A DNA stretch of 64,000 nt from Candidatus Zixiibacteriota bacterium (lineage in GTDB: Bacteria; Zixibacteria; MSB-5A5; UBA10806): the NCBI GenBank assembly GCA_024641335.1, contig JAHEDG010000007.1, forward strand, positions 18,061 to 82,060, read 5' to 3'. The notes below the pieces were generated by a model, which saw only the letters and a program-made list of their open reading frames with translations, made no database searches and was not told the origin of the DNA. Position numbers and translations under genes: made by a program. Shown here piece by piece: positions 9,083 through 58,028 of the stretch (the stretch's first letter is position 1; each line of letters begins with the position of its first letter).

Positions 9083-10384
9083 ATGAGCCTGAAATTCTGG
9101 TTGGAAATTGTAATTATTCTGATACTGGTATTCATATCCGGTTTTTTCTCGGCGTCGGAAATCGCCATAGTCGCGGTTAGAAAGAGCCGTATGAAAAAGC
9201 TGCTTAATTCCGGCGACTCCAGGGCGGATTTCGTCCTGAAACTCAAGAATAATCCGGATAGCTTTTTCGCTATAGTTCAGGTGGGGATGACGGTTACGGC
9301 ATCGGCGGCCAGCGCGATGGGAGGCGCGACCGCCATTCTGGTAATCAAACCGCTGGTTCAATCGATTCCGATAGCCGCGATAAATCATGCGGCCGAATCT
9401 ATTTCTATAATTATCGTGATAGCGGTTATTTCTTATATATTTCTCGTGCTGGCGGAGCTGGTCCCGAAGGCAATGGCTATCCGGCACTCGGAAAGAATAG
9501 CGTTATGGGTAGGACCGGCCACCTGGTGGTCGCTTAGGGTCATCGGCATATTTATTAGTTTTCTCTCGTGGTCGACTAACATGTGTCTTAGAATCGCGGG
9601 GATTTCGTCCGATATGAAAAAAGATTCGACCATCTCCGAGGAGGAGGTCAAGATCATTCTGGCCGAGGGATTGCATCACGGGGTATTCGAGCCGGAAGAG
9701 CATGAGCTGATTCACTCGGTGTTCGAGTTTTCCGATACGGTAGCCAGGAACGCCATGACACCGAGAACCGAAATGGCCGCGGTGGAGATCGGCGATTCGC
9801 CCGAAAAGATATTGAGGATTGCCACCACCGAAGGGTATTCCCGTCTGCCAGTCTACCAGGATAATCTGGATAATATAAAGGGCATACTAAATGTCCGGGA
9901 TCTTCTGAACTTATTCCTTTCGGACGGCCTGATAATTACCGGGGATATCATGCGGCCGGCGTTTTTCGTACCTGACTCCAAGAAGATCTCGGAAATTCTG
10001 CAGGATATGCAAAAAGAGAAGACTCATATTGCCATCGTGCTGGATGATTTTGGCGGAACCGCCGGACTGATTACGCTGGAGGATATAGTCGAGGAGATAG
10101 TCGGCGAGATACAGGATGAATATGATACCGAGGAAGAAGATATAGTTATGAATTCCGACGGTTCGGCGATAGTGGATGGGGCGGTCGATGCCGAGTTAGT
10201 ATGCGAAAAATTCGGCGTGGAGCCTCCCAAAGGGGAGTTCGAGTCGATTACCGGAATGCTAATCGAGAAGGCCGGTCATATTCCATCGCTGAATCAGGTG
10301 ATCGAAACGGCCGGATTGAAAATCACCGTGTTGGAAAAAGACGGTCACAGGGTGAAAAAGGTAAAAGTGGAAAGGCTCGGGTAA
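9083..10384 (+). CDS. CNNM/CorC-HlyC family protein (DUF21 membrane domain + CBS pair + CorC_HlyC domain)
   Basis: The N-terminal DUF21 TM region begins FFSASEIAIV. It is followed by a CBS pair (ARNAMTPRTEM..., GDIMRPAFFVPDS...) and a C-terminal transporter-associated domain. Confidence 0.85.
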   Translation: MSLKFWLEIVIILILVFISGFFSASEIAIVAVRKSRMKKLLNSGDSRADFVLKLKNNPDSFFAIVQVGMTVTASAASAMGGATAILVIKPLVQSIPIAAINHAAESISIIIVIAVISYIFLVLAELVPKAMAIRHSERIALWVGPATWWSLRVIGIFISFLSWSTNMCLRIAGISSDMKKDSTISEEEVKIILAEGLHHGVFEPEEHELIHSVFEFSDTVARNAMTPRTEMAAVEIGDSPEKILRIATTEGYSRLPVYQDNLDNIKGILNVRDLLNLFLSDGLIITGDIMRPAFFVPDSKKISEILQDMQKEKTHIAIVLDDFGGTAGLITLEDIVEEIVGEIQDEYDTEEEDIVMNSDGSAIVDGAVDAELVCEKFGVEPPKGEFESITGMLIEKAGHIPSLNQVIETAGLKITVLEKDGHRVKKVKVERLG

Positions 10385-11174: not shown

Positions 11175-12188
11175 TTAGAATCCGCCGCTAAGGGTAATAC
11201 GGTGTACCGATCCGAGATCGGCGAATGAGGAGTAGGAATAATCCATGGTATATTTTTTATAGCTGTATCCGAATCCGCCGGCGAAACCGGCGATGGTATC
11301 GTTATCGTTACCGATCTTATAGTCTCTTCCGGCGGTGGTCCAGCCGACGCGCAGGAAGAACGGTTTTAGAGTGATGACCTCGAGACCCATGGCCAGGTAG
11401 TAATCGTTATCTATAGGTTTGCCTGCCTCGCTGGCGAAGACCAGCGGCAATCCCCGCAGCGCGTGAGACATCCCCAGGGCTATTTTTGTCGGCAGCGGGT
11501 CTTTGTGGGATTCTGTCAGCCCGGAAAGCTGGACTCCGAAATTGGTCAGGGCCAGCCCGATTCTGGTCGAACCGTCCTCCTGCAGAAGGTACATCAATCC
11601 CAAGTCTGCAGCCAGGCCGTCGGAGGAATATTCGTCGATCCTCTGATAAATCAATTTTCCCGAGGCCCCCAATGACAATCTCGGCATAACCCGCCGGGAA
11701 TAGGAAAGCGACAAGGCCATATCGGACGCTCCGAAGGTACCGATCAGATCTCCGCTGGAGTTGAGACGATCGAACGATCCGTAGTTTTGGTAGGCGGCCG
11801 ATATTCCGGCGGCCGAGCGGTCATCGAGGTTCCTGATATAGCCGATGAAACCGTATTGAAAATCCAGAAGGTAGTTCAGATATGAGGCGGTAAAACGGTT
11901 CTGAGCCGCGAGGTCTTCGGGCTTATCGAGAAGATCGTCGTAGAGCTCGTAGCTTTCGCCTTTGGCGGTCAACCCAGCGGGATTATAATACAGTGCGGTT
12001 TCATCATCGGCCAGGCCGACAAAGGCTCCGCCCAGGGCCTGGGATTTGGCTCCCGTGCCGACTTTCAGGAAGCTATAGGCGGTCGTACCGGCTTTCGGGT
12101 TGGCCGCCGACAGATCCGGGCAGATGACAGCCGCCGTGATTAGCGATACAACTATCAATTGTAAAATTTGTTTTTTTATCATTATCAA
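11175..12188 (-). CDS. PorV/PorQ-like outer-membrane beta-barrel protein
   Basis: Signal peptide, then the N-terminal motif AYSFLKVGTGAKSQALGGAFVGLADDETALYYNPAGL characteristic of the PorV/PorQ (FadL-like) family. The sequence ends in aromatic ...LSGGF. Confidence 0.5.
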   Translation of the reverse strand: MIMIKKQILQLIVVSLITAAVICPDLSAANPKAGTTAYSFLKVGTGAKSQALGGAFVGLADDETALYYNPAGLTAKGESYELYDDLLDKPEDLAAQNRFTASYLNYLLDFQYGFIGYIRNLDDRSAAGISAAYQNYGSFDRLNSSGDLIGTFGASDMALSLSYSRRVMPRLSLGASGKLIYQRIDEYSSDGLAADLGLMYLLQEDGSTRIGLALTNFGVQLSGLTESHKDPLPTKIALGMSHALRGLPLVFASEAGKPIDNDYYLAMGLEVITLKPFFLRVGWTTAGRDYKIGNDNDTIAGFAGGFGYSYKKYTMDYSYSSFADLGSVHRITLSGGF

Positions 12189-14569: not shown

Positions 14570-15883
14570 CTATTCCTTTTGAGCGTCAACACCGTATTTG
14601 TTAAATTTGTCTATATATTTATAATTATATTTATTCGCCGGATTAGCCATACCTGCCTTGATTAATTTCGCATTTACAAAAGTTTTGTTTTTTAAATAGA
14701 CATAAGCGAGCAGGATTTCGTCATCAAAATATTTAATTTCGTCATATTTTAAATAAACCGGCTTATTCAATACGAGTTTTTTGAGGTATTCTATCGTTTT
14801 TAATCTCTTCTCCTTTAATGGCTCGATACCTATCAGCTTAATTACCGCGCCTGAATTCAATTCCAATAGATTTGCATCCACAACGCTTCTGATTTTATAA
14901 TAATCGTCTTGCGCCGAGTCATTCTTTTGAATCTTAGAACGAAACTGGAGTTTTCTAGGATCGATTTTCTTATTTATCTGAACATTATCCTTGAATATAT
15001 ATGGCAACTTACTCAATTTTTCCGGAAATATCGACTTGGGCAATTTCTGTATCATAAACCTGACGATTTGAGGGTCGTTAAAAAGCTGTGGCTTATCCAA
15101 TCCGAGTTTTGATTTTATTACTGACATAAATTCATCGTTGATCTCATATCCTATTGAATTTCTTTGGAGATTCATTGCCGATAGAGAAGTAGTACCGCTC
15201 CCCAAAAATGGATCGAGGATAGTATCTCCGGTAAAACTAAACATTTTGATTAGTCTCGCGGGCAATTCCTCCGGAAACATCGCAAGATGCTTTTCCTGTT
15301 TTACGCCATTAAAATACCAATGACCCGCAAAATATTGATTCCATTCTTCAATGCTCATTTTTGATTTTAGTTTTTGTTCTTTGGATGGTTTTGGCGCATT
15401 TCCGAGTTTTTTGAATATCAATATAAACTCATAGTCTATTTTTAAGATGCCATTTCTTGGATAAGGGAATGACCCCATAATGGAGGCACCTCCCGAAGTA
15501 TTGGTTGTAGTAACTTTCTGCCAAATTATCGCACCCATATAATCCAAACCTATGGTTTCGCAAAATTTGATTATTTCGGTTCTGATGGGAATAACCTTAT
15601 ATCTGCCATAATAGACTGATCTTGCGAACTGGTCGCCAATGTTTATGCACAATCTGCAACCAGGTGACAGCGCTCTATTGCATTCCATCCATACCAGATT
15701 TAGATTATTAATATAATTTTCATAAGAATCATCAAACCCGATTTGATCTTTATGGCCATAATCCTTTAGTTGCCAATATGGCGGAGAAGTAATTATGAGA
15801 TTGACGGTTTCATCGGGAATTTCGGACATATCCCTCGAATCACCTGCTACAATAAGATGTTCTGTCTTATTCATTTTTATCAT
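14570..15883 (-). CDS. DNA methyltransferase (N4-cytosine/N6-adenine, beta class) with a C-terminal SNase-like OB-fold domain
   Basis: Motif IV SPPYWQLKDY is near the N-terminus and motif I DPFLGSGTTSLSA lies downstream, which is the beta-class order. The C-terminal ~110 aa (VIKLIGIEPLKEK...LLAYVYLKNKTFVNAKLIKAGMA) resemble staphylococcal nuclease. Confidence 0.85.
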   Translation of the reverse strand: MIKMNKTEHLIVAGDSRDMSEIPDETVNLIITSPPYWQLKDYGHKDQIGFDDSYENYINNLNLVWMECNRALSPGCRLCINIGDQFARSVYYGRYKVIPIRTEIIKFCETIGLDYMGAIIWQKVTTTNTSGGASIMGSFPYPRNGILKIDYEFILIFKKLGNAPKPSKEQKLKSKMSIEEWNQYFAGHWYFNGVKQEKHLAMFPEELPARLIKMFSFTGDTILDPFLGSGTTSLSAMNLQRNSIGYEINDEFMSVIKSKLGLDKPQLFNDPQIVRFMIQKLPKSIFPEKLSKLPYIFKDNVQINKKIDPRKLQFRSKIQKNDSAQDDYYKIRSVVDANLLELNSGAVIKLIGIEPLKEKRLKTIEYLKKLVLNKPVYLKYDEIKYFDDEILLAYVYLKNKTFVNAKLIKAGMANPANKYNYKYIDKFNKYGVDAQKE

Positions 15884-23944: not shown

Positions 23945-26900
23945 ATGACCTTCAGGAACGCGTTACTGCTATCATCTATTCTATTGTATTCCGGCGGCAC
24001 AAGCGCGCAGGAGACCTATTTCGGTCAAAACAAGGTGCAGTACCGTGATTTTGACTGGTACTACATTCAGACGTCGCATTTCGATCTGTATTTTTACGAA
24101 AACGAGGATTCTCTGGCGGTATTCGCGGCCGAGGCTTTGGAGAAGGCTTTTACCGAGATTCATGCGGAATTGAATTACAGCCTTTCAGACCGGGTGCCGG
24201 TAATCGTTTACGCGTCACACAACGAATTTCAGCAGACCAATGTCATAAACGAGATAATTCCGGAGGGAGTAGGCGGTTTTACGGAGGTTTTCCAGAACCG
24301 CATTGTGATACCGTTTACCGGCTCCTACGAGGATTTTCGTCATGTTCTTCATCATGAGCTGACCCACGCGGTAATATTCGATCTGCTCTACGGCGGGGCT
24401 TTGGGTTCGGTATTTTCGAAGGAAGCGCTGTTTCGTCCTCCGCTTTGGTTTTCGGAGGGTTACGCGGAGTATTCATCGCGGCACGGCTGGGATCTGGAAG
24501 CCGATATGTTCATGCGTGACGCCACAATCGAGGGGTATCTTCCCCCGCTGATGTATTTGGACGGTTTCATAGCGTATAAGGGCGGTCAGTCGGCGTTGAA
24601 TTTCATAGTGGAGAAATACGGTCAGGAGAAGATCCTGGAAATTCTAAGCAGAGGCAAGGGGATGATCTCGATGGAGCGTGCGTCCAAATCGGCCCTGGGA
24701 GTTTCCCTGGAGGATTTATCCGACGAGTGGCAGAAGGCGTTAAAGAGGATGTACTGGCCGGAGATCGCCGAGAGGAAAGAGCCTGAGGAATTAGGTAAGG
24801 CGCTGACCGATCATACCAAGGACGGTTCGATCTACAATCAGAAGCCGGAATGGTCTCCCAAGGGTGACAGGCTGGCGTTTTTCTCCGACAAGTCGAATCC
24901 GCAGAACGGATATTCGGACCGTTATAATGAGATATATGTCATATCGACTGTGGACGGCACGGTGATATCGCGTCCGGTCAAGGCTGAACGGTCGGGCGAT
25001 TTGGAATCGCTGCATTCGTATTTATCGGGGCTGGCCTGGTCACCTGACGGCAAGCGTGTGGCTTTCATAAGCAAGAGTCACGGTCATGACGCTTTATTTA
25101 TTGTCGACGCCTCCAGCGGGAAACGGCGCAAGAGGATCGAGTTGGAGCTTACCGGAATGAGGAATCCGTCATGGTCGCCGGACGGCGGAAAGATAGCGTT
25201 CGAGGGGATGAAGAACGGCTTTACCGATCTTTATGTTTATCAACTGGAATCGGGGCATTTGGATCGTCTTATGAAGGATCGGTACGACGATAACGATCCA
25301 TCGTGGTCGCCGGACGGCCGGTACCTGGCATTCTCTTCGGACCGCGGCCCGCAGGCGATCGACAGTACGGGATTCGAACCGGGCAATTATAATATATACA
25401 CAATTCTGATGGAGACCGGGGAGATCCGTCAGCTGACAGACAATCCATATAAAAATATCCAGCCGGCATTTTCCCCGGACGGCAAGCGGATAGCATTTGT
25501 CTCCAACCGGAACGGCATCGACAACATCTATCTTTACGACATGCAGACAGAATCCGATTTTCCGATCACCAATATCATCTCCGGCGCGTTCACTCCGTCG
25601 TGGGCGCCTGAAGGGGACAAATTGGCGATTTCCGCATTCAACAAGTACGGATTCGATATATATATTCTGAAGGATTTAAAGAACGTAAGCGGTGAAAACG
25701 GGGAGTTGAGCCTGACGCCGTATATGCAGAAGCTTCGGAACAAGGACAAAAACATATTTGTGCCGGAGCCCGAGATCATTATAGCCGAAAGCGAGCCGGA
25801 GTCGGATACGACGGCTGATAAGGCGGTCGATTTGAGCACATATGTTTTCAGGGCCGGAGAGAAGATACTGGATGAGAGGAGCGGCAAGTCTCATCGTGAT
25901 TCCACATTGGAATCGGCCTCGATTCCTCTCAAGGATACGTTGGAGTACCTGGCTCCCGACGGCAGTTATAAGCAGAATAAATACAGATTGAAATTCGCTC
26001 CGGAGCTGATAACGGGCGGTCTTTCGTACGATAATTTTTACGGATTGCGGGGCCAGTCGTTTCTGGCAATCTCAGATATTTTCGGGGATCATCATTTTTA
26101 TGTAATCACCGATCTGGTCAACAGTATCGATCAATCGAACATTCAGATAAGCTATGGCTACACTCCGAGGAGGATCGATTACGCCGCGGGGATATTTCAT
26201 TTCAAGGATGTTTACTACGATGATTACAAGGGGTTTTTCTTTTCCGATCGAGTTTACGGCGCCCAGGGTCACGCCAGCTATCCGTTTTCCCGTTTTTCAC
26301 GTCTCGATCTGGCGTTGACGCAATTGACCATATCGAGGGAAAATTATTCGAATTTCGAGAAGAACGCGACCACCAATCTTTTTTCTCCGACTCTGGAGTT
26401 TGTAAACGACGCGGTGATCTGGGGAATAGTCGGTCCGGTATCGGGTCAGAGATACAAGGTAAGTCTGGAGCAATCTTTGAAGGCGGTGGATAACGGTTTA
26501 TCTTATACCGCGATCCAATTCGATTATCGCCATTACTGGCATTTCTGGGGGCGATATAATTTCGCGCTGCGCATGGGAGGCGGGACATCGGGCGGTTCCG
26601 ACGCCAAGCAGTTTCATCTGGGAGGCTCATCAAACTGGATCGGGCCGAAGCGGGATCGGGCCGATATTTTCAATGTCAAGGATATCTATGTGAACGAGAT
26701 CGTGGTTCCTCTTCGCGGATATAGCTATTTCAAGGATTCGGGGAGCAATTTCGGCATACTCAACCTGGAATTCCGTTATCCGTTCATAGATTATTTCCAG
26801 CTTCATTTTCCTCTGCCGATAGCGCTTCAGCAGGTATCGGGAGCGATATTCTGGGATATGGGCGCGGCCTGGAACAAAAACAGCGAGATACCGTTCAGGG

Positions 26901-27097
26901 CCGGCCAGGGGCTCAATGTTCAGAGTCCTGATGAATTCGGCAACCCGGTAAGCGACGGAGTCCTGGGGGGATTCGGAATAGGCGCGCGGGCCAACTTAGG
27001 GATATTCGTTTTGCGGGTCGATATGGCCTGGGCGACCGATTTGGATTATGTCGCTCCGAAACCGGAGACATATTTCTCATTCGGGGCGGAATTTTAA
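23945..27097 (+). CDS. Large envelope protein: N-terminal HExxH peptidase-like domain + TolB-type beta-propeller repeats + C-terminal Omp85/surface-antigen-like barrel
   Basis: Signal peptide and a HELTHAV motif. There are at least 6 repeats of the W/F-SPDG-K/R-x-[IL]AF type (PEWSPKGDRLAFFSD, LAWSPDGKRVAFISK, PSWSPDGGKIAFEG, PSWSPDGRYLAFSSD, PAFSPDGKRIAFVSN, PSWAPEGDKLAISA). The C-terminal ~350 aa have alternating beta-strand character and end in ...YFSFGAEF. Confidence 0.6.
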   Translation: MTFRNALLLSSILLYSGGTSAQETYFGQNKVQYRDFDWYYIQTSHFDLYFYENEDSLAVFAAEALEKAFTEIHAELNYSLSDRVPVIVYASHNEFQQTNVINEIIPEGVGGFTEVFQNRIVIPFTGSYEDFRHVLHHELTHAVIFDLLYGGALGSVFSKEALFRPPLWFSEGYAEYSSRHGWDLEADMFMRDATIEGYLPPLMYLDGFIAYKGGQSALNFIVEKYGQEKILEILSRGKGMISMERASKSALGVSLEDLSDEWQKALKRMYWPEIAERKEPEELGKALTDHTKDGSIYNQKPEWSPKGDRLAFFSDKSNPQNGYSDRYNEIYVISTVDGTVISRPVKAERSGDLESLHSYLSGLAWSPDGKRVAFISKSHGHDALFIVDASSGKRRKRIELELTGMRNPSWSPDGGKIAFEGMKNGFTDLYVYQLESGHLDRLMKDRYDDNDPSWSPDGRYLAFSSDRGPQAIDSTGFEPGNYNIYTILMETGEIRQLTDNPYKNIQPAFSPDGKRIAFVSNRNGIDNIYLYDMQTESDFPITNIISGAFTPSWAPEGDKLAISAFNKYGFDIYILKDLKNVSGENGELSLTPYMQKLRNKDKNIFVPEPEIIIAESEPESDTTADKAVDLSTYVFRAGEKILDERSGKSHRDSTLESASIPLKDTLEYLAPDGSYKQNKYRLKFAPELITGGLSYDNFYGLRGQSFLAISDIFGDHHFYVITDLVNSIDQSNIQISYGYTPRRIDYAAGIFHFKDVYYDDYKGFFFSDRVYGAQGHASYPFSRFSRLDLALTQLTISRENYSNFEKNATTNLFSPTLEFVNDAVIWGIVGPVSGQRYKVSLEQSLKAVDNGLSYTAIQFDYRHYWHFWGRYNFALRMGGGTSGGSDAKQFHLGGSSNWIGPKRDRADIFNVKDIYVNEIVVPLRGYSYFKDSGSNFGILNLEFRYPFIDYFQLHFPLPIALQQVSGAIFWDMGAAWNKNSEIPFRAGQGLNVQSPDEFGNPVSDGVLGGFGIGARANLGIFVLRVDMAWATDLDYVAPKPETYFSFGAEF

Positions 27098-27271
27098 GCG
27101 TCGAGAATAGCGAGCGGCGATAATCCGGCCATTCTGCCAGGGCGGGATCGGCCGCTGTCAGATCTTTACAATCTTATATCTTCAAATACTTTATCACTCA
27201 CAGTGTAGAATTGAATTGACATTTTTCCATTTATGGATAAATTTAGACAAAAACCGGAAAGGGTTTTTAAG

Positions 27272-29035
27272 ATGATTTTAATCAGGACTGCCTTAATAAT
27301 CGGGATATTGACTTCCATATTATATGCCGACAACCCGATGGCTTCGTTGGAATTAATAGATACGGATTACGGCTCCGGGGCATTAACATTAACGGAGATG
27401 TTGACTTACAAAGCCATAACGCTGACCGCTCCGGAATCATTACCCGCACGTTATCGGTTGGATCGTCCGATGAAGGACGGCACCCAGATAGTGATGGAAA
27501 TCAAGAATAACTGGATTTTGAGCGATCCGGAGTTCCGTCGGGATTTTTCGTTTCTTTTGACCAGGGTCGATAAGCAGGCTTATTTCGATTCGCCGTCGGG
27601 TTTTTTCCGAATTCACTATGATACGACCGGCGGGCACGCGGTATATCAGCCGGGCACTGATGTAGATCCTCATGACGGAGTACCGGATTATGTCAACAGG
27701 ACAGCGGAGTATTTCGATCTGGCCTGGCATATAGAATGCGACAGTCTGGGGTATGATACTCCGCCGTTCGACGGAGCACGCGGAGGGGGCCAGGATCTTT
27801 ATGACGTTTATATGCATCGATTTTCGGGCGCTTACGGGGTTACTTTTCCGGAGTTATCGTCAAACCAGAGGCCGGGGAGGAATAACGATTATTGCAGTTA
27901 TATTTATGTAGATCCGACTTATAGCGGATTCGGCTATAACGACCGCACTCTTCCGATGAAGGTAACGTCGGCGCACGAATTTTTCCACGCCTCACAGTTC
28001 GCCTACAATGTTAACGCCGGCGCCTGGTACATGGAAAACTGCGCGACCTGGATGGAGGATATCCTCTGGGATGATATCAACGATAACTACGCTTATTTGG
28101 GGTATTTTCTGAATAATCCGAACAAAGCGATAAGTTTTACCAATGGCGGATTCGAATACGGGGCTTTTCTCTGGCCGATGTTTCTTTATGAGAGCTGGGG
28201 GCATGATTTTATCCGTATCTCGTGGGAATACACCATAAATTACCCTGCCCTGACGGCGTTGGAAAGGACCTGCGAGGATAACGCCACATTTTTGGAAGAA
28301 CAGTACACTGTTTATTCGCTCTGGAATTACCTGACCAACGTCAGGAGCGACGGCAATCATTATGAGGAAGGTTCCAACTATATTCCCGCCTGGACCATGC
28401 GGACACACACATCGTACCCGGTGGAGAATCTGTCATCGACCAGGCGCGCGGACGCTTTGGGATGCAATTACATCATGTTCAGGAACAACGGGCAGGAGGG
28501 GAATCTTCAGATAACATTCGACGGGCTGGACAACCAGATCTGGTACGTACAAGTCATCAAGGCGGTATCCAACAGCAGCCATGTTTACGATTTCATCGAC
28601 TTGAACTTCCGCAACGAAGGGGAATACGCGGTGGAGGATTTCGGACAGTACGAGTGGGTGGCCCTGGCGGCCGATCTGATTCAGGGTTCATTGGGTGATT
28701 ACGATTATTCCGCGTATATATTACAGACGGGCATAGGATCGGAGAGCGCGGAATTGCCTCAAGAGCCGATACTCCGGGGGAATTATCCGAATCCGTTCAA
28801 CCCGGAGACGATGATATCGGTATATTCGCCGTCGGAGCAAAAGGCGCAACTGACGGTGTATGATATCATGGGACGAAAATCTGTGGAGAGATCGATTGAT
28901 CTTTCCGCGGGCGAGAATAATATCCCGTTAAGAATTGATGGTTCGGACGACGGGAGAGATTCGGGCGGCGTATATTTTTACAGGATCTCATGGGGCGGAT
29001 ACGAATTTAACGGCAAGATGCTTTATCTCAAGTAG
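27272..29035 (+). CDS. Secreted putative zinc metalloprotease (HEFFH motif, MXAN_6640-like) with a T9SS-type C-terminal domain
   Basis: Signal-like MILIRTALIIGILTSILYA from ATG 27272; the ORF track starts at 27233. TSAHEFFHASQFAYN is an HExxH motif. The C-terminus reads GNYPNPFNPETMISVY...GVYFYRISWGGYEFNGKMLYLK. Confidence 0.55.
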   Translation: MILIRTALIIGILTSILYADNPMASLELIDTDYGSGALTLTEMLTYKAITLTAPESLPARYRLDRPMKDGTQIVMEIKNNWILSDPEFRRDFSFLLTRVDKQAYFDSPSGFFRIHYDTTGGHAVYQPGTDVDPHDGVPDYVNRTAEYFDLAWHIECDSLGYDTPPFDGARGGGQDLYDVYMHRFSGAYGVTFPELSSNQRPGRNNDYCSYIYVDPTYSGFGYNDRTLPMKVTSAHEFFHASQFAYNVNAGAWYMENCATWMEDILWDDINDNYAYLGYFLNNPNKAISFTNGGFEYGAFLWPMFLYESWGHDFIRISWEYTINYPALTALERTCEDNATFLEEQYTVYSLWNYLTNVRSDGNHYEEGSNYIPAWTMRTHTSYPVENLSSTRRADALGCNYIMFRNNGQEGNLQITFDGLDNQIWYVQVIKAVSNSSHVYDFIDLNFRNEGEYAVEDFGQYEWVALAADLIQGSLGDYDYSAYILQTGIGSESAELPQEPILRGNYPNPFNPETMISVYSPSEQKAQLTVYDIMGRKSVERSIDLSAGENNIPLRIDGSDDGRDSGGVYFYRISWGGYEFNGKMLYLK

Positions 29036-29043
29036 GGAGGAAA

Positions 29044-29586
29044 ATGAAATTAGGTGGAATTATCGCCGTATCGGCTGTCTTGCTGGCGGCATCCTCGGCG
29101 AACGGCCAGGATTTCAAGTCGAAAACAGCCCCGGATTTCACGCTGCCGGGGATCAACGGCTCATTGATGACCCTTTCGAAGCAATATGGCGAAGGCCCCG
29201 TTTATATATCGTTCTGGGCCACCTGGTGCAAACCGTGCCGGGAGGAGCTGAAGATAATCCAGGGGCTTTATGAGAAGTATTCGGACAGAGGTTTTAAGGT
29301 TATCGCTATCAACACTGAAGGTCCGAAGGCCGAAGGCAAGATCAAGAGCTTTGTAAAATCGAACGGCTGGACATTCGACGTTCTTCTGGACAAGGACGGG
29401 GAAGTATTCCGCCGTAAATATAAGGGCTTTGCCATGCCTTTTACAGTCATGACCGATTCGGATGGGAATATCGTATTCTCAACGGTTGGTTTCAAGCCGG
29501 GGGACGAGAAGGAGATCGAGGATCTGATTCTCAAGAATCTTCCTCCATCGAAAGACAACAGCGAAGATTCCGGGTCGGAGGATTAG
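29044..29586 (+). CDS. TlpA/ResA-family periplasmic thiol-disulfide oxidoreductase
   Basis: Signal peptide and a thioredoxin motif FWATWCKPCREE. The size is typical of TlpA. Confidence 0.85.
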   Translation: MKLGGIIAVSAVLLAASSANGQDFKSKTAPDFTLPGINGSLMTLSKQYGEGPVYISFWATWCKPCREELKIIQGLYEKYSDRGFKVIAINTEGPKAEGKIKSFVKSNGWTFDVLLDKDGEVFRRKYKGFAMPFTVMTDSDGNIVFSTVGFKPGDEKEIEDLILKNLPPSKDNSEDSGSED

Positions 29587-31020
29587 ATGGGCGGGCGCGT
29601 ATTTTCGGGAGTAGCGATCGCGGTATTTGGTTTTTTTATAGCTCTTTTCATACTCTCCGATATGGCGGCGGCTCAGAATGAGTACTGGTCGGTGTCGGCG
29701 GCCAACTGGGGGCAATACTGGTATTTCAACGAGGGCAGGCGGGATTCTCTGGACAACAGATTTATAGTCGATTTCGATCTGGGGAATTTTTACACCGGCG
29801 CCTGGTTAGAGGTGCTGGAACCGGACCGTCCGGACGGGTCGTACGAAGAGATATCCCAAAGGTATTTCGGCTGGCATGAAGGCGGGCTGACTCTTCAGGC
29901 GGGGAATTTTTATCAGGCGTTCGACAGGGGTCTTTCGCTCAACGCGTTTTTGGATGACGCGGTATATTACGATAACAATTTGGACGGGATCAAGGTTACG
30001 GGGCTGTACGACGGATTCGAGTTCGATATGCTGTCGGCTCGGGGGATGAATAATTTCACCGGCGATCGGGATTATATTATCCGGGGGGTTCGCGGGAAGA
30101 TCAAGCCGTTCGAGGCGGCCCGGGCTGGATTTTCGTATGTACGATTCAAGCAGAACGATTTTTCCGATTTCAGCCTGTCGCAGAACGCCAATATCACATC
30201 GTTTAATTCGGGGGTTTCTTACGGTCCTCTGGATATTTACGCGGAGTACGCGATGAAGAGGGGTCGTCCGGAGTTCGGGCAGGATATCGACGGGGACGGC
30301 ACCTACCTGACCGGTTCAATGAGTTTCGAGCTATTCAGCGTATTCGCCGAATACAAGAACTACATAAATCTACTTTACCCCAATGTTAACGGGGCGTTCA
30401 ATAATCCTCCGCCGGTCAGCCATCAGGGCCGCAATTTAGCGTCCTTGAATGGAGTTCCCGGGGAAAGAGGTTACCAGGCGGGGCTGTATATATCTCCGAC
30501 TTATGATTTGAATTTCGATCTTTCATTTTCCGAATCGTTTTCCCGCGGTTTTCCTGTAGATTACTACCTGGCGGAGAAATTCGCGGGGGCGCGCTGGAGC
30601 CCGACATCGGAGATAGTTCTGAATTACAGTTTCGACCGTTTTGACTGGACAATCGAGGATGAGATCGAGAATTACTTCGACGCCTATTACAATCTGACAG
30701 AAAACCATACGGCGTCACTCACGGCTTATTCCAAAAGATTCATCCCGTCGGCGGGAGAAGATTACCATGAGGATTACCTGATATTGGGATACGGTCTGGC
30801 CAACAGGGCGCAGTTCAATATCGGTGGTTCCAAATCGAATTTCGACGCGGGTTTCGATCCCGACAAATTGGCGTTTGCCGAGCTAATTATCCGATTCAGC
30901 AATCATGAACTGATAATTTTCAACGGCGGCGAACGCGGCGGTTTGATCTGCTCGTCAGGACTCTGCCAGAACCGTCCGACATTCATAGGCACGCGGATGA
31001 TGTTATTTTCGAGATTTTAA
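29587..31020 (+). CDS. Putative outer-membrane beta-barrel protein (possibly DUF6029-like)
   Basis: The ATG directly abuts the tlpA stop. N-terminal hydrophobic signal, alternating-strand composition, a Cys pair near the C-terminus (CSSGLCQNRP), and a terminal aromatic ...LFSRF. Confidence 0.45.
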   Translation: MGGRVFSGVAIAVFGFFIALFILSDMAAAQNEYWSVSAANWGQYWYFNEGRRDSLDNRFIVDFDLGNFYTGAWLEVLEPDRPDGSYEEISQRYFGWHEGGLTLQAGNFYQAFDRGLSLNAFLDDAVYYDNNLDGIKVTGLYDGFEFDMLSARGMNNFTGDRDYIIRGVRGKIKPFEAARAGFSYVRFKQNDFSDFSLSQNANITSFNSGVSYGPLDIYAEYAMKRGRPEFGQDIDGDGTYLTGSMSFELFSVFAEYKNYINLLYPNVNGAFNNPPPVSHQGRNLASLNGVPGERGYQAGLYISPTYDLNFDLSFSESFSRGFPVDYYLAEKFAGARWSPTSEIVLNYSFDRFDWTIEDEIENYFDAYYNLTENHTASLTAYSKRFIPSAGEDYHEDYLILGYGLANRAQFNIGGSKSNFDAGFDPDKLAFAELIIRFSNHELIIFNGGERGGLICSSGLCQNRPTFIGTRMMLFSRF

Positions 31021-31132
31021 GGGGCAATGATGGGCCGGTTTATCCAGGCGAGAAACGATAAATGTTATTGTTTTTTTTAGAAAATGCCGTATTATTGTAA
31101 AAAGCCGGAATTTTTTAAGTGAAGGAGGTTTG

Positions 31133-32188
31133 ATGAGCATCGTTAAGGGAACAGCCCTGGCTCTGGGAGTATCGTTAATACTTCTTTTTGTCAGCGCGCG
31201 GGCCGCGGACAGGCTGGTCGTTGGCGAGATGCTGACGAACACGTCGTGAAGCTACTGTTATCAAGCTGATCTGGTCTTAGATCAGTTGGCAGTAGACATG
31301 GAAGCCTTAACGGTTTTCATTCGTTATCATACGTGGTGGCCGAGCGCGAACGATCCGTTTTATGTGTACAATGTAACCGAGAACAGGGTCAGAAACGACT
31401 ACTACGGGAACAATTACACTCCTCATTTTTTCATCGACGGGGCGATTGACGCCGGCTCGAATCACGGGTCGTGGGGTTCTCGGATCGATGACCGGAGCTT
31501 GTCATGGGCGCCATTGGAGATGAGTATCGCCGGTGTTTACGATGAGGATACCCGCACGGGGCAATTCACAGTGACAATTTATGTGGAAGACGCTCCGGGG
31601 CTGGGTACGACGAGGCTGCGGATAGCGTTGACAGAGACAGATATTCAATGGAACGCTCCTAACGGCAGCCGGGTACATGATCAGACATTTCGCGATATGA
31701 TACCGTCGACCTACGGACAGCCGGTTACGTTGACCCAGGGAGAAACGCTGCAATATACGTTCGATCTGTCGGTACCTGAGCCTTTGAATCCCGACAACTG
31801 TATGCTGGTAGCGTTCGTTCAGTCCGATCAAAGCAGAGAGATCCTTCAGGGGGCGCGCAAAGCGGTTCCAGAGCTAACTCAAACAGCGATCGATGACGAA
31901 GTTTCCCTGCCGGAGAATCCGAGCCTTTTGCAAAATTATCCCAACCCGTTCAATGCCGGCACGAAAATCGATTTTTACACCCGCGGCGGCGATGTTCGGC
32001 TGACGGTGTATGATCTGAGCGGGGCGGCAGTAAGGACATTAGTGGATAATTCCCTTGAGGCCGGGCTCCATTCGATAGTATGGGACGGCACTGACGATGA
32101 AGGGCATGAGATTTCGTCGGGAGTTTATTTCTACCGTCTTTCCGATTCGGGCGGCGCGTCTACCAACAGGATGACGCTCCTCAAGTAA
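31133..32188 (+). CDS. Predicted secreted selenoprotein: thioredoxin-fold/Omp28-related domain with U-x-x-C motif (Sec at TGA 31247-31249) and a T9SS-type C-terminal domain
   Basis: GAAGGAGG at 31121-31128, ATG 31133, signal peptide MSIVKGTALALGVSLILLFVSARA. The frame is continuous through TGA 31247 into the ORF-track ORF 31286-32188. A SECIS-like hairpin follows the TGA. The C-terminus reads QNYPNPFNAGTKIDFY...GVYFYRLSDSGG...RMTLLK. Confidence 0.75.
31250..31295 (+). promoter_or_regulatory. SECIS-like stem-loop immediately downstream of UGA
   Basis: Lower stem CTACTG (31252-31257)/CAGTAG (31290-31295). Upper stem CTGATCT (31266-31272)/AGATCAG (31279-31285). Apical loop GGUCUU (31273-31278). 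The core is identical in the paralogue. Confidence 0.7.
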
Positions 32189-32215
32189 TATATTTTTAAG
32201 TTCGCCTTTAAGATG

Positions 32216-32250
32216 CTCTTCCGATTTTTCGGGAGGGCATTTTATATTTA
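32216..32250 (+). terminator. Rho-independent terminator after selenoprotein gene 1
   Basis: Stem CTCTTCCG/CGGGAGGG (contains G-U pairs) with loop ATTTTT, followed by a T-rich tail CATTTTATATTT. Confidence 0.55.
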
Positions 32251-32442
32251 GGGTGATTTCGCTCTAATCTCTGGCGGAGATATTTTACTAATGGATTTAA
32301 AATCGCGCGGGACGCGGGATTAAGAGTAATAATGGATCGATAAGAGTCATGTTATATGTCTGTGAGATATTTGGGCAAATAATTGTTGTTTTTATCTGAG
32401 ATGGTCATATATTAAAAAAAACTAACCGCTGAAGGAGGCTTA

Positions 32443-33498
32443 ATGAGCAACGTGAAAAGTTTGGTTTTCCTGGCACTAATAGGGGCGCTGTGTATATCGA
32501 CCGCCTCATTTTCGGCTGAAAGGCTGGTAGTGGGCGAGATGCTCACGAACACATCGTGAAGTTACTGTTATCAAGCTGATCTGGTCTTAGATCAGTTGGC
32601 GGTTTCGATGGATCGTGTCGCGGTATTTATTCGGTATCACGTATACTGGCCAAGCCCGAATGATCCATATTACGTTTTTAACCCGACCGAAAACAGGGCA
32701 CGGAACACTTATTATGGCAACAATTACACGCCTCATTTTTTCATAGACGGCAGCATTGACGGGGAGTACTACAACAACCAATGGCAAAACATGATAACCG
32801 CCCGGGCCGAAGTCAGTTCCCCGTTGATCATGGAAATCGGCGGCAGTTACGACGAAAATAACAGAAGCGGCAATATGACTGTTACGATATCGGCTGAGGA
32901 AACTCCGTCGCAATCCAATTTGAAATTGAGAGTCGCCCTGATTGAGAACGGCATCCGGTGGAACGCTCCTAACGGGAGTACGGCACATGAGCAGACGTTC
33001 AGGGACATGATTCCCAGTACGGCGGGCGAACCGGTTACTATTTCCGCTCATGAAACATTGGAATTCAGCTATGATTTTACCACCCCCAGTCCACTGGTAC
33101 CGGCCAATTGCGTTTTAGTCGCCTTTGTGCAATCGGATCAGAACAAGGAGATTCTTCAGGGGGCGCGTTCATGGGTCTCCCGTCTGACTCCGACTGAGGT
33201 TGAGGACGGCGCACCAATGCCGAATGAATTTTCATTGGAGCAGAACTATCCGAACCCGTTCAACGCCGACACCAGAATCGGTTTTATTACCGATGGGGGC
33301 GCGGCCGAATTGATGGTTTACGATTTGACCGGTTCGCTGGTAAAGAACCTGTTTAGCGATACTCCGGAAGCGGGATATCATTCGGTTATCTGGGACGGCA
33401 CGGATGAATCGGGTAATGACGCGGCTTCGGGAGTGTATTTTTACCGTTTAAAGACAAACGGCGAAGAGCAGATCAAGAGGATGACGCTTTTGAAATAA
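32443..33498 (+). CDS. Predicted secreted selenoprotein, tandem paralogue (Sec at TGA 32557-32559), U-x-x-C motif + T9SS-type C-terminal domain
   Basis: GAAGGAGG at 32431-32438, ATG 32443, signal peptide MSNVKSLVFLALIGALCISTASFSA. In-frame TGA at the same codon (39) as the first copy. Same 351-codon length. The C-terminus reads QNYPNPFNADTRIGF...GVYFYRLKTNGEEQIKRMTLLK. Confidence 0.75.
32560..32603 (+). promoter_or_regulatory. SECIS-like stem-loop immediately downstream of UGA (copy 2)
   Basis: Upper stem CTGATCT (32576-32582)/AGATCAG (32589-32595) and loop GGUCUU (32583-32588). A 38-nt block (32563-32600) is identical to 31253-31290. The lower stem is partly retained with G-U pairs. Confidence 0.7.
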
Positions 33499-33530
33499 GC
33501 GTTATCTGAATCATATTTTCAGAATCCAAA

Positions 33531-33558
33531 CCCTTCCGGAAAATTCGGGAGGGTTTTT
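33531..33558 (+). terminator. Rho-independent terminator after selenoprotein gene 2
   Basis: Stem CCCTTCCG/CGGGAGGG, loop GAAAATT, then TTTTT. Confidence 0.75.
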
Positions 33559-57677: not shown

Positions 57678-57948
57678 GCCGCGCACCCACCGTTGACCCA
57701 TCGTTTCGGGGACCCGATCCGGCTTTGGGCTGGGATCAGACTGCCCCGCGGCACACGCCGCTGCCGCTTACCGCTGCTACCTTCCGGTCCTGACGGGGTT
57801 AGGCGGCCGTCCGTTGCGCGGGATCTGATCCTTTATAACGCTTCCGGCCGGCTGGATTTCCCGAATGATCGGACCGCCGGTGGGACTTCAACCCCGGTAT
57901 AGCGGATTCCGGGTTACAGGGCACCGCTAACTCCCCGTCTAGCACGAC
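57678..57948 (-). ncRNA. ffs: Signal recognition particle RNA, long (Bacillus/archaeal-type, Alu-domain-containing) form
   Basis: The minus strand reads GUCGUGCUAGACGGGGAGUUAGCGGUGCCCUGUAACCCGGAAUCCGCU..., which closely parallels the 5' Alu domain of B. subtilis scRNA. The domain IV core GUCAGGACCGGAAGGUAGCAGCGG is present. The 5' GUCGUGC pairs with the 3' GCGCGGC. The ends are approximate. Confidence 0.85.
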
Positions 57949-57952
57949 ATTC

Positions 57953-58028
57953 TGGTGGAGCAGAACGGGATCGAACCGTCGACCTGTACGTTGCGAACGT
58001 ACCGCTCTCCCAGCTGAGCTACTGCCCC
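57953..58028 (-). tRNA. tRNA-Ala (anticodon CGC)
   Basis: A 76-nt cloverleaf: acceptor GGGGCAG/CTGCTCC with the G3:U70 identity pair, D arm GCTC/GAGC, anticodon stem GTACG/CGTAC with loop TTCGCAA, T loop TTCGATC, and an encoded CCA. Confidence 0.95.

Follow-up and report, generated by a model that had tools for sequence, protein, structure and literature searches.

Putative selenocysteine codons in tandem Omp28-related genes of a Zixibacteria genome

A 64,000-nucleotide stretch of DNA from Candidatus Zixiibacteriota bacterium (GenBank assembly GCA_024641335.1, contig JAHEDG010000007.1, positions 18,061 to 82,060; this whole stretch is hereafter called the window and is numbered from its first letter) contains a gene for an Omp28-related protein whose reading frame is interrupted by TGA at 31247–31249. 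The question raised by this locus is whether the codon terminates translation or is read through and, in the latter case, which residue is inserted. A first-pass annotation, made from the letters alone, had regarded it as the selenocysteine codon of a U-x-x-C protein truncated by the open reading frame (ORF) caller. On the evidence described below, we consider it very probable that this UGA, codon 39 of the gene, is decoded as selenocysteine. The comparison with related sequences supports the conclusion that this gene (copy 1) and its tandem paralogue (copy 2) both encode selenoproteins, which would form an unannotated clade of the known thioredoxin-fold U-x-x-C type.

The read-through frame and its relatives

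Copy 1 lies on the forward strand. A Shine-Dalgarno sequence, GAAGGAGG, was read directly at 31121–31128, and ATG 31133 opens a frame that encodes the N-terminus MSIVKGTALALGVSLILLFVSARA/ADRLVVGEMLTNTS and reads MSIVKGTALALGVSLILLFVSARAADRLVVGEMLTNTS up to the TGA. After the TGA, the frame continues as SYCYQADLVLDQL / SYCYQADLVLDQLAVDMEAL, and translation revealed no further internal stop before TAA 32186–32188. The first-pass annotation had placed the ribosome-binding site, the start codon, the N-terminus and the single in-frame stop in the same way. The read-through coding sequence (31133–32188) consists of 351 codons, the UGA being codon 39, and is followed by TAA; its product aligned end to end with full-length cysteine-containing homologues of about 350 amino acid residues. 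By eye, MSIVKGTALALGVSLILLFVSARA (31133–31204) was recognized as a signal peptide with a putative A-x-A type cleavage site, and the UGA, if read as selenocysteine, is the first residue of a U-S-Y-C redox motif at 31247–31258.

Copy 2, which is located about 1.3 kb downstream on the same strand and had been missed in the first-pass annotation, is organized in the same manner. The Shine-Dalgarno sequence GAAGGAGG was again read directly, at 32431–32438, and is followed by a read-through coding sequence of 351 codons (32443–33498, with TAA at 33496–33498) that is 57% identical to copy 1 and carries the putative selenocysteine codon at 32557–32559 in the same U-S-Y-C motif. Around the TGA, the two copies are nearly identical over about 85 nt, including a 38-nt run that spans the hairpin described below, and the sequences on either side of this block diverge. 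The database entry for copy 2 contains the truncated form only (P0014). Among 68 TGA read-through candidates in the window, only copies 1 and 2 were credible as selenoprotein genes.

Relatives of the two genes were sampled from 80 genome loci, of which L001–L016 carry the domain, and 51 metagenome loci (131 loci in total). The protein search yielded two classes of homologues, one of about 350 residues that matched the whole query and one of about 292–306 residues whose match was confined to the region following the TGA. Cysteine occupied the TGA column in every full-length homologue aligned, within the motif T-N-T-x-C-x-x-C. A motif scan of the window and all locus DNA, using a pattern that would accept TAA and TAG as well, gave 75 distinct contexts, comprising 52 with TGA, 16 with TGC, 7 with TGT and none with TAA or TAG. 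The homologue comparison proposed in the first-pass annotation thus returned TGA in 52 contexts, cysteine in 23 and no other residue or stop. A count of all matches at the alignment column, without removal of redundant contigs, gave a stop in 72 and cysteine in 28.

The first 21 TGA forms analysed had an upstream ATG (GTG in one case) and a comparable hydrophobic signal peptide, and most of them had a Shine-Dalgarno sequence. The TGA was located at codon 37–45 with no further stop, except in L006_11349, which is cut short. The 38 codons upstream of the TGA were conserved at the protein level, always in frame, and aligned with the N-termini of the cysteine homologues. Tandem arrays reached four copies, and in the closed chromosome CP070813.1 (L001) all four were TGA forms; selenocysteine-type and cysteine-type paralogues were mixed in several genomes (L003, L008, L009 and L011). 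Judged by its named relatives and by synteny, the contig belongs to Zixibacteria.

Some members deviated from this pattern. In the closed chromosome CP070742.1, one TGA-form gene is intact and a second tandem copy (L006_11349, 11220–11456 of locus L006) ends after 78 codons, owing to a frameshift, pseudogene formation or an assembly error. In contig SDBS01111694.1 (locus L099, 671–1699), both codons of the redox pair are TGA (T-N-T-T-TGA-GGG-CTT-TGA-Y), so that the motif would become U-G-L-U. This member is known from a single 2.4-kb contig; it has an otherwise intact frame and a type-B-like hairpin (see below) downstream, and its U-x-x-U may represent either a diselenide motif or an error. 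Another member, at 10001–10294 of locus L015, has C-x-x-S (VNTSCTYSDD) in place of C-x-x-C.

The genes of this family are cut short by gene callers and in public records. The public records of two relatives, P0026 and P0032, describe N-terminally shortened proteins of 292–295 residues named 'Omp28-related outer membrane protein'. When 5.8 billion proteins were searched with a profile, 69 clusters of the family were recovered, about 40 of which were truncated and none of which was named a selenoprotein. The truncated clusters, which include the entries of both closed Zixibacteria chromosomes, lack the signal peptide and the active site. Once the annotation is corrected, the whole family receives a different predicted location and function.

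The hairpin downstream of the UGA codon

In the minimum free energy fold of copy 1, a hairpin extends from 31252 to 31295, with a lower helix formed by 31252–31260 and 31287–31295, a UCAA bulge and an upper part at 31265–31286. This upper part, the core of the candidate selenocysteine insertion sequence (SECIS), consists of a 9-bp helix (31265–31273/31278–31286) with the apical loop GUCU (31274–31277); if it is read as a 7-bp helix, the loop becomes GGUCUU (31273–31278). The arms given in the first-pass annotation, CTACTG 31252–31257 with CAGTAG 31290–31295 and CTGATCT 31266–31272 with AGATCAG 31279–31285, and its loop GGTCTT at 31273–31278 were all present. With an energy of −22.5 kcal/mol (z = −3.8), the fold of the copy 1 hairpin was more stable than those of all 200 dinucleotide-shuffled sequences. 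The same core sequence recurs in copy 2 (32575–32596), whose fold has an energy of −16.8 kcal/mol.

Two types of hairpin were distinguished among the TGA forms. The type A hairpin, GCUGAUCUGGUCUUAGAUCAG, was found in 34 TGA forms, and its loop GGUC begins 23–24 nt past the UGA; the occurrence of GGUC in 34 of 34 follows from the selection of this set and matches invariant columns of the alignment. In the 9-bp upper helix, 97.1% of cells were paired (n = 34), and compensatory double changes were observed at four positions: U-A to A-U, U-A to C-G, C-G to A-U or U-A, and A-U to G-C via G·U. None of 500 shuffles attained the observed covariation, and sliding of the 3′ partners reduced pairing to 15–36%. 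The type B hairpin, CUCGAUCAGUUGAUCGAG and its variants, was found in 16 more distant TGA forms, with the loop [A/G]GUU located about 10 nt further downstream. Here, 92.9% of cells were paired, four positions co-varied (17 cells), none of 500 shuffles matched, and pairing collapsed on sliding. The type B clade comprises L008, L009, L011, L098, L102, L103, L105 and L126, with the hairpin at approximately +30 to +47 from the UGA, and it shares the letters GAUCAG/UUG with type A, placed in the opposite arm. These alignments suggest that the SECIS changed its position in the mRNA between the sister clades.

The hairpin was present in 51 of the 52 TGA forms and absent altogether from 12 of the 23 cysteine forms, and the median energy of the best hairpin was −10.1 kcal/mol in the former versus 0 in the latter (p = 8.7e-9, Mann-Whitney test without correction for phylogeny). 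Codon choice within the type A hairpin differed strongly from that elsewhere in the same genes: valine was encoded by GUC in 34/34 cases (background 0.31), one leucine by UUA in 27/30 (background 0.085), alanine by GCU in 30/31 (background 0.18) and another leucine by CUG in 30/31 (background 0.34). The peptide encoded by this hairpin is A-D-L-V-L-D-Q, and the cysteine forms vary at this site (PELYLDAL, AEHILDSL, ANEALDNV and others). Because the codon bias is extreme and the cysteine forms are variable and mostly free of the hairpin, the RNA structure appears to dictate the peptide in the selenocysteine forms, and not the reverse. These patterns indicate that the hairpin is a selected RNA element specific to the TGA forms. 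Two cysteine forms retain the hairpin of their nearest selenocysteine-type relatives, the pair being near-identical in the case of L003_692: L003_692 with the stem and the loop GAUC in place of GGUC, and L102_4103 with the type B hairpin; judged by sequence, they look like recent switches from selenocysteine to cysteine or from cysteine to selenocysteine. Frequent recent switches of this kind, mixed arrays and two SECIS positions would make the family a compact natural system for studying the evolution of SECIS elements and selenocysteine usage.

In bacterial SECIS elements, a stem-loop with G in its apical loop lies shortly past the UGA, which is the type of rule used by bSECISearch, and the hairpin described here conforms to this rule. 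Its likeness to known elements lies in its location within the coding sequence just past the UGA, its G- and U-containing apical loop GGUC and its conserved upper helix with a non-conserved lower part. The archetype is the SECIS of Escherichia coli fdhF, which the loop appears to resemble; the loop start 24 nt past the UGA is presumably a few nucleotides further downstream than in fdhF.

Selenocysteine insertion and its alternatives

TGA is used as an ordinary stop elsewhere in the window. It closes the three genes with a Pfam Proton_antipo_M domain, nuoL (at 2080), nuoM (3624) and nuoN (5051), and terminates 11 of the 38 long ORFs. The recoding is therefore local and does not reflect a variant genetic code, as the first-pass annotation had reasoned.

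Several observations weigh against selenocysteine insertion. Using ARAGORN, no selenocysteine tRNA was detected in the window, in 25 Zixibacteria loci or in 1.5 Mb of related DNA (8 tRNAs), and the sole tRNA of the window is specific for alanine. No SelD-like gene was found in the 1.5 Mb with a regular expression for the active site or by tblastn with an approximate E. coli SelD probe, and Pfam scans detected no sel gene among the 34 larger ORFs of the window, in which the only AIRS-domain protein is a PurL-type FGAM synthase. The searched DNA amounts to about 20 kb per related genome, too little of any one genome for the absence of sel genes to say much either way. No SECIS model of Rfam matched at gathering thresholds in the whole window or at E ≤ 10 over 31100–32700; the covariance-model scan suggested in the first-pass annotation therefore did not recognize the hairpin, and the only weak Rfam matches fell on a terminator-like hairpin between copies 1 and 2. 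Of the hairpin proposed there, the upper helix was borne out by covariation and codon constraint, whereas the lower helix was not: only 59.5% of its cells were paired among relatives and it is 2 bp shorter in copy 2, so that it is probably dispensable and outside the functional core. In addition, many of the type A helices are near-identical, and the covariation analysis, like the Mann-Whitney test, was not corrected for phylogeny.

If TGA 31247 were a true stop, the product would start at TTG 31286 or ATG 31298, and the 38 upstream codons would be a leader peptide or untranslated. The mechanical ORF list, which places the start at TTG 31286 as the first-pass annotation had said, and the public annotation of relatives such as P0026 and P0032 fit this explanation, and HBP35 of Porphyromonas gingivalis provides an example of a protein that also yields N-terminally truncated cytoplasmic forms (PMC2907840). 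However, neither start codon is preceded by a Shine-Dalgarno sequence, and the TTG sits within the hairpin. The resulting product would keep the tail for the type IX secretion system (T9SS) and have neither catalytic motif nor signal peptide, since the latter is present only in the read-through protein; this consequence had also been pointed out in the first-pass annotation. Conservation of the upstream 38 codons in frame, their alignment with the N-termini of the cysteine homologues and the invariable use of TGA as the stop likewise make this explanation very unlikely. Pseudogene formation by nonsense mutation, or an assembly error at the TGA, has a negligible probability. Decay does occur in the arrays, because L006_11349 ends after 78 codons, but the 52 distinct TGA forms agree in the position of this codon across numerous independent assemblies, two closed chromosomes among them. 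Neither TAA nor TAG ever occupies the column, and the otherwise intact frames encode conserved protein sequence before and after the TGA. The intact frames and a column restricted to TGA and cysteine effectively refute decay or error as the origin of the TGA.

Rather than being a functional RNA, the hairpin might also be a side effect of gene conversion between the paralogues or of conservation of the peptide A-D-L-V-L-D-Q-L, since it is located wholly within the coding sequence and the near-identical block of the two copies could have arisen by conversion. The codon choice in the hairpin, far from the usage elsewhere in the same genes, is not expected on this basis, nor are the compensatory changes that preserve pairing, the variability of the peptide in the usually hairpin-free cysteine forms, and the independent covariation of the different hairpin in the second clade. 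Codon bias, covariation and the variability of the cysteine forms largely refute this explanation and leave it most improbable. A further alternative, which we regard as unlikely, is that the hairpin aids read-through of the UGA as cysteine or tryptophan by a near-cognate or mischarged tRNA, in a lineage without a full selenocysteine pathway. In its favour, the DNA searched (the window and 1.5 Mb from relatives) yielded no selenocysteine machinery, and the alignment of UGA with cysteine together with the hairpin does not by itself specify the inserted residue. On the other side, the position and G/U-containing loop of the hairpin are those expected for SECIS elements bound by SelB. The related family NF045500 is curated by NCBI as a selenoprotein, and a thioredoxin gene of another Zixibacteria genome has TGA at its own C-x-x-C, the usual pattern of a selenoproteome.

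The thioredoxin gene mentioned above, at about 5241 of locus L034 in the metagenome-assembled genome (MAG) PMV_8.32 of Zixibacteria, encodes an unrelated secreted protein with thioredoxin and TPR domains, in which TGA replaces the first cysteine codon (VLVDFWRPG-TGA-KWC); this gene lends indirect support to the use of selenocysteine. A generic scan also gave an AhpC-TSA protein at about 7562 of locus L047, with FNRTFT-TGA-PFC, as a selenoprotein candidate. In a Gemmatimonadota MAG (JAYOKQ010000039.1, locus L031, 9485–10321), a T9SS-tailed protein of the AhpC-TSA/Redoxin type has TGA in place of its first cysteine codon (INFFGFN-U-PFC), and a hairpin, UCGCGG AGG CCGCGA, lies downstream of the TGA. 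This protein is a candidate for a second, unrelated family of T9SS-tailed selenoproteins.

Domain structure, related systems and gene neighbourhood

The read-through protein of copy 1 contains three predicted domains. A thioredoxin-like (DUF1223-like) catalytic domain (31205–31447, with approximate borders) was assigned by profile and by fold match to 2axo. It is followed by an Omp28-type β-sandwich (31394–31867; Pfam PF11551, residues 88–245, 62.2 bits against a cutoff of 34.9) and a T9SS type A C-terminal sorting domain (31937–32170; TIGR04183, residues 269–346, 35.3 bits against a cutoff of 23), the latter in agreement with the first-pass annotation. Two other Pfam models scored below their cutoffs, Por_Secre_tail with 21 bits (cutoff 27) and DUF1223 with 19 bits (cutoff 30.7). 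When the family profile was compared with the sequences of the PDB, its N-terminal 100 residues matched 2axo (DUF1223, Atu2684), the C-x-x-C being aligned, and residues 107–244 matched 2r2c (Omp28).

For the fold, the AlphaFold model of P0002, the closest full-length cysteine homologue (56% identical), was used (mean predicted local distance difference test score 82.8, predicted template modelling (TM) score 0.69). In this model, the C-x-x-C lies between a strand (28–34) and a helix (39–54), which is the position of the active site in the thioredoxin fold. Together with the 2axo alignment, this agrees with the earlier proposal that the TGA occupies the site of the first cysteine of a thioredoxin-fold CxxC. 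In a Foldseek search with the model, 5y1a (HBP35) ranked first (E 2.3e-14, TM 0.53–0.59); 2axo was matched with E 1.5e-8 and TM 0.65, and chains of 2r2c with E 3.7e-5 to 1.5e-4 and TM 0.70–0.78.

The closest curated family is NCBIfam NF045500, 'Omp28-related selenoprotein'. All 17 proteins tested from the family described here were homologous to this model over the thioredoxin-like and Omp28 regions (best E 7.5e-21), and residues 22–257 of the window protein aligned with model positions 34–280 of 377, U-x-x-C included, which suggests that the selenocysteine of the NF045500 members is at the same column. The curated status of NF045500 means that curators were already aware that Omp28-related proteins may be selenoproteins. 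The copy 1 protein, however, scored 44.6 bits against a cutoff of 200 bits, no relative found in this study reached the cutoff, and the profile search described above returned no NF045500 members. Judged by these scores, the family is a sister clade of NF045500 and not a member by its curated definition; because the scores are so far below the cutoff, annotation pipelines have left the clade unnamed and its public records truncated.

HBP35, the best structural match, likewise has a conserved C-terminal domain in addition to a thioredoxin-like motif. Its thioredoxin activity requires its two active-site cysteines, a modified form is present on the cell surface, and it binds hemin (PMC2907840). 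HBP35 requires the Por (type IX) system for its secretion (PMC3120885). It differs from the window proteins in having cysteine instead of selenocysteine and in belonging to Bacteroidota and not Zixibacteria, and the known role of HBP35 is hemin binding. The N-terminal domain also resembles DUF1223 (PF06764; 2axo, Atu2684), with which it aligns at E-L-F-T-x-x-x-C-x-x-C-P-x-A-D and whose fold it matches, although the Pfam score is below the cutoff and DUF1223 proteins have no T9SS tail and no known function. Among the thioredoxin-fold U-x-x-C/C-x-x-U selenoproteins known from surveys of microbial selenoproteomes (Prx-like, DsbA-like and thioredoxin-like), selenocysteine likewise takes the place of the first cysteine of the redox motif, and selenocysteine and cysteine paralogues coexist in one genome; the proteins described here differ from them in the T9SS tail, the Omp28 domain and the arrays of up to four copies.

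The genes upstream of copy 1 encode a TlpA-like secreted redoxin with a WCKPC motif (29044–29586; Pfam AhpC-TSA and Redoxin) and a DUF6029 protein (29587–31020; Pfam DUF6029) that ends in ...FSRF, both on the forward strand. Endings of this type are common in outer-membrane barrels, and the DUF6029 protein is probably an outer-membrane β-barrel. The order redoxin, DUF6029 and one to four family genes was kept in about 30 loci, and in about 35 the DUF6029 gene immediately preceded the family; distant clades, in which DUF6029 is only about 29% identical, are among them. The redoxin of the module always carries cysteine. From this conserved gene order, we infer a module that would pass periplasmic reducing power to surface U-x-x-C/C-x-x-C proteins.

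Taken with selenocysteine decoding, these features suggest the following pathway. The ribosome would read the UGA of codon 39 as selenocysteine when the SECIS hairpin, with its loop 24 nt past the UGA, recruits SelB with selenocysteinyl-tRNA(Sec), as in other bacteria. The product would be a precursor of about 38 kDa consisting of the signal peptide, the thioredoxin-like U-x-x-C domain, the Omp28 β-sandwich and the T9SS sorting domain. Export would proceed through the Sec translocon, followed by passage of the outer membrane via type IX secretion, and the protein would probably be attached to the cell surface. There it may act as a selenol/thiol-disulfide oxidoreductase like HBP35, and its partners would be the products of the two upstream genes, the TlpA-like redoxin and the DUF6029 protein of the outer membrane.

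The case for a surface oxidoreductase, drawn from fold and gene neighbourhood, is about evenly balanced. It is weakened by the similarity to HBP35 being undetectable at the sequence level, 5y1a being absent from the PDB profile search at E ≤ 1. None of the T9SS components PorK/L/M/N, SprA and PorU/V was seen among the 34 window ORFs scanned, no dedicated search having been made. The family is less ordinary in its T9SS tail, its tandem arrays, its two SECIS positions and its association with a conserved redox module. Selenocysteine would be carried by a protein with a T9SS sorting signal, hence probably outside the cell, and would be tied to a conserved three-gene redox module. No report on Omp28-type, DUF1223, Zixibacteria or T9SS-sorted selenoproteins was found in the searched open literature. 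We suggest tentatively, and with more doubt than confidence, that these are the first described surface selenoproteins delivered by the T9SS, forming the outer end of an extracytoplasmic redox module, with a SECIS that moved between two mRNA positions and one member that may be U-x-x-U. If so, the module would combine one to four U-x-x-C/C-x-x-C paralogues at the surface with a DUF6029 barrel in the outer membrane and a TlpA-like redoxin in the periplasm, and Zixibacteria would use it to capture or reduce a substrate outside the cell.

An intrinsic-terminator-like hairpin with a 13-bp stem and a following T run is located 3′ of copy 2 on the forward strand (33528–33556). Two further genes upstream of the module on the same strand, syntenic in the closest relatives only, encode a 1050-residue protein with PD40, Peptidase_MA and Omp85 domains (23945–27097) and a 600-residue protein with no Pfam domain beyond a weak T9SS tail (27233–29035). 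The MAGs of L004, L005, L009 and L068, the last from the same assembly as L009, are labelled 'uncultured Ignavibacteria'. These labels look wrong, because L004, L005 and L009 share the gene order of the Zixibacteria chromosomes (60–70% identity for L004 and L005).

Elsewhere in the window, on the reverse strand, a bacterial large signal recognition particle RNA (57679–58028, 158.5 bits) adjoins tRNA-Ala(CGC). A dnaX-like ORF of 593 residues overlaps this RNA, so that its start (GTG 57754) is probably over-extended. Also on the reverse strand, an ORF at 14570–15883 joins an N6/N4 DNA methylase domain and a staphylococcal-nuclease domain.

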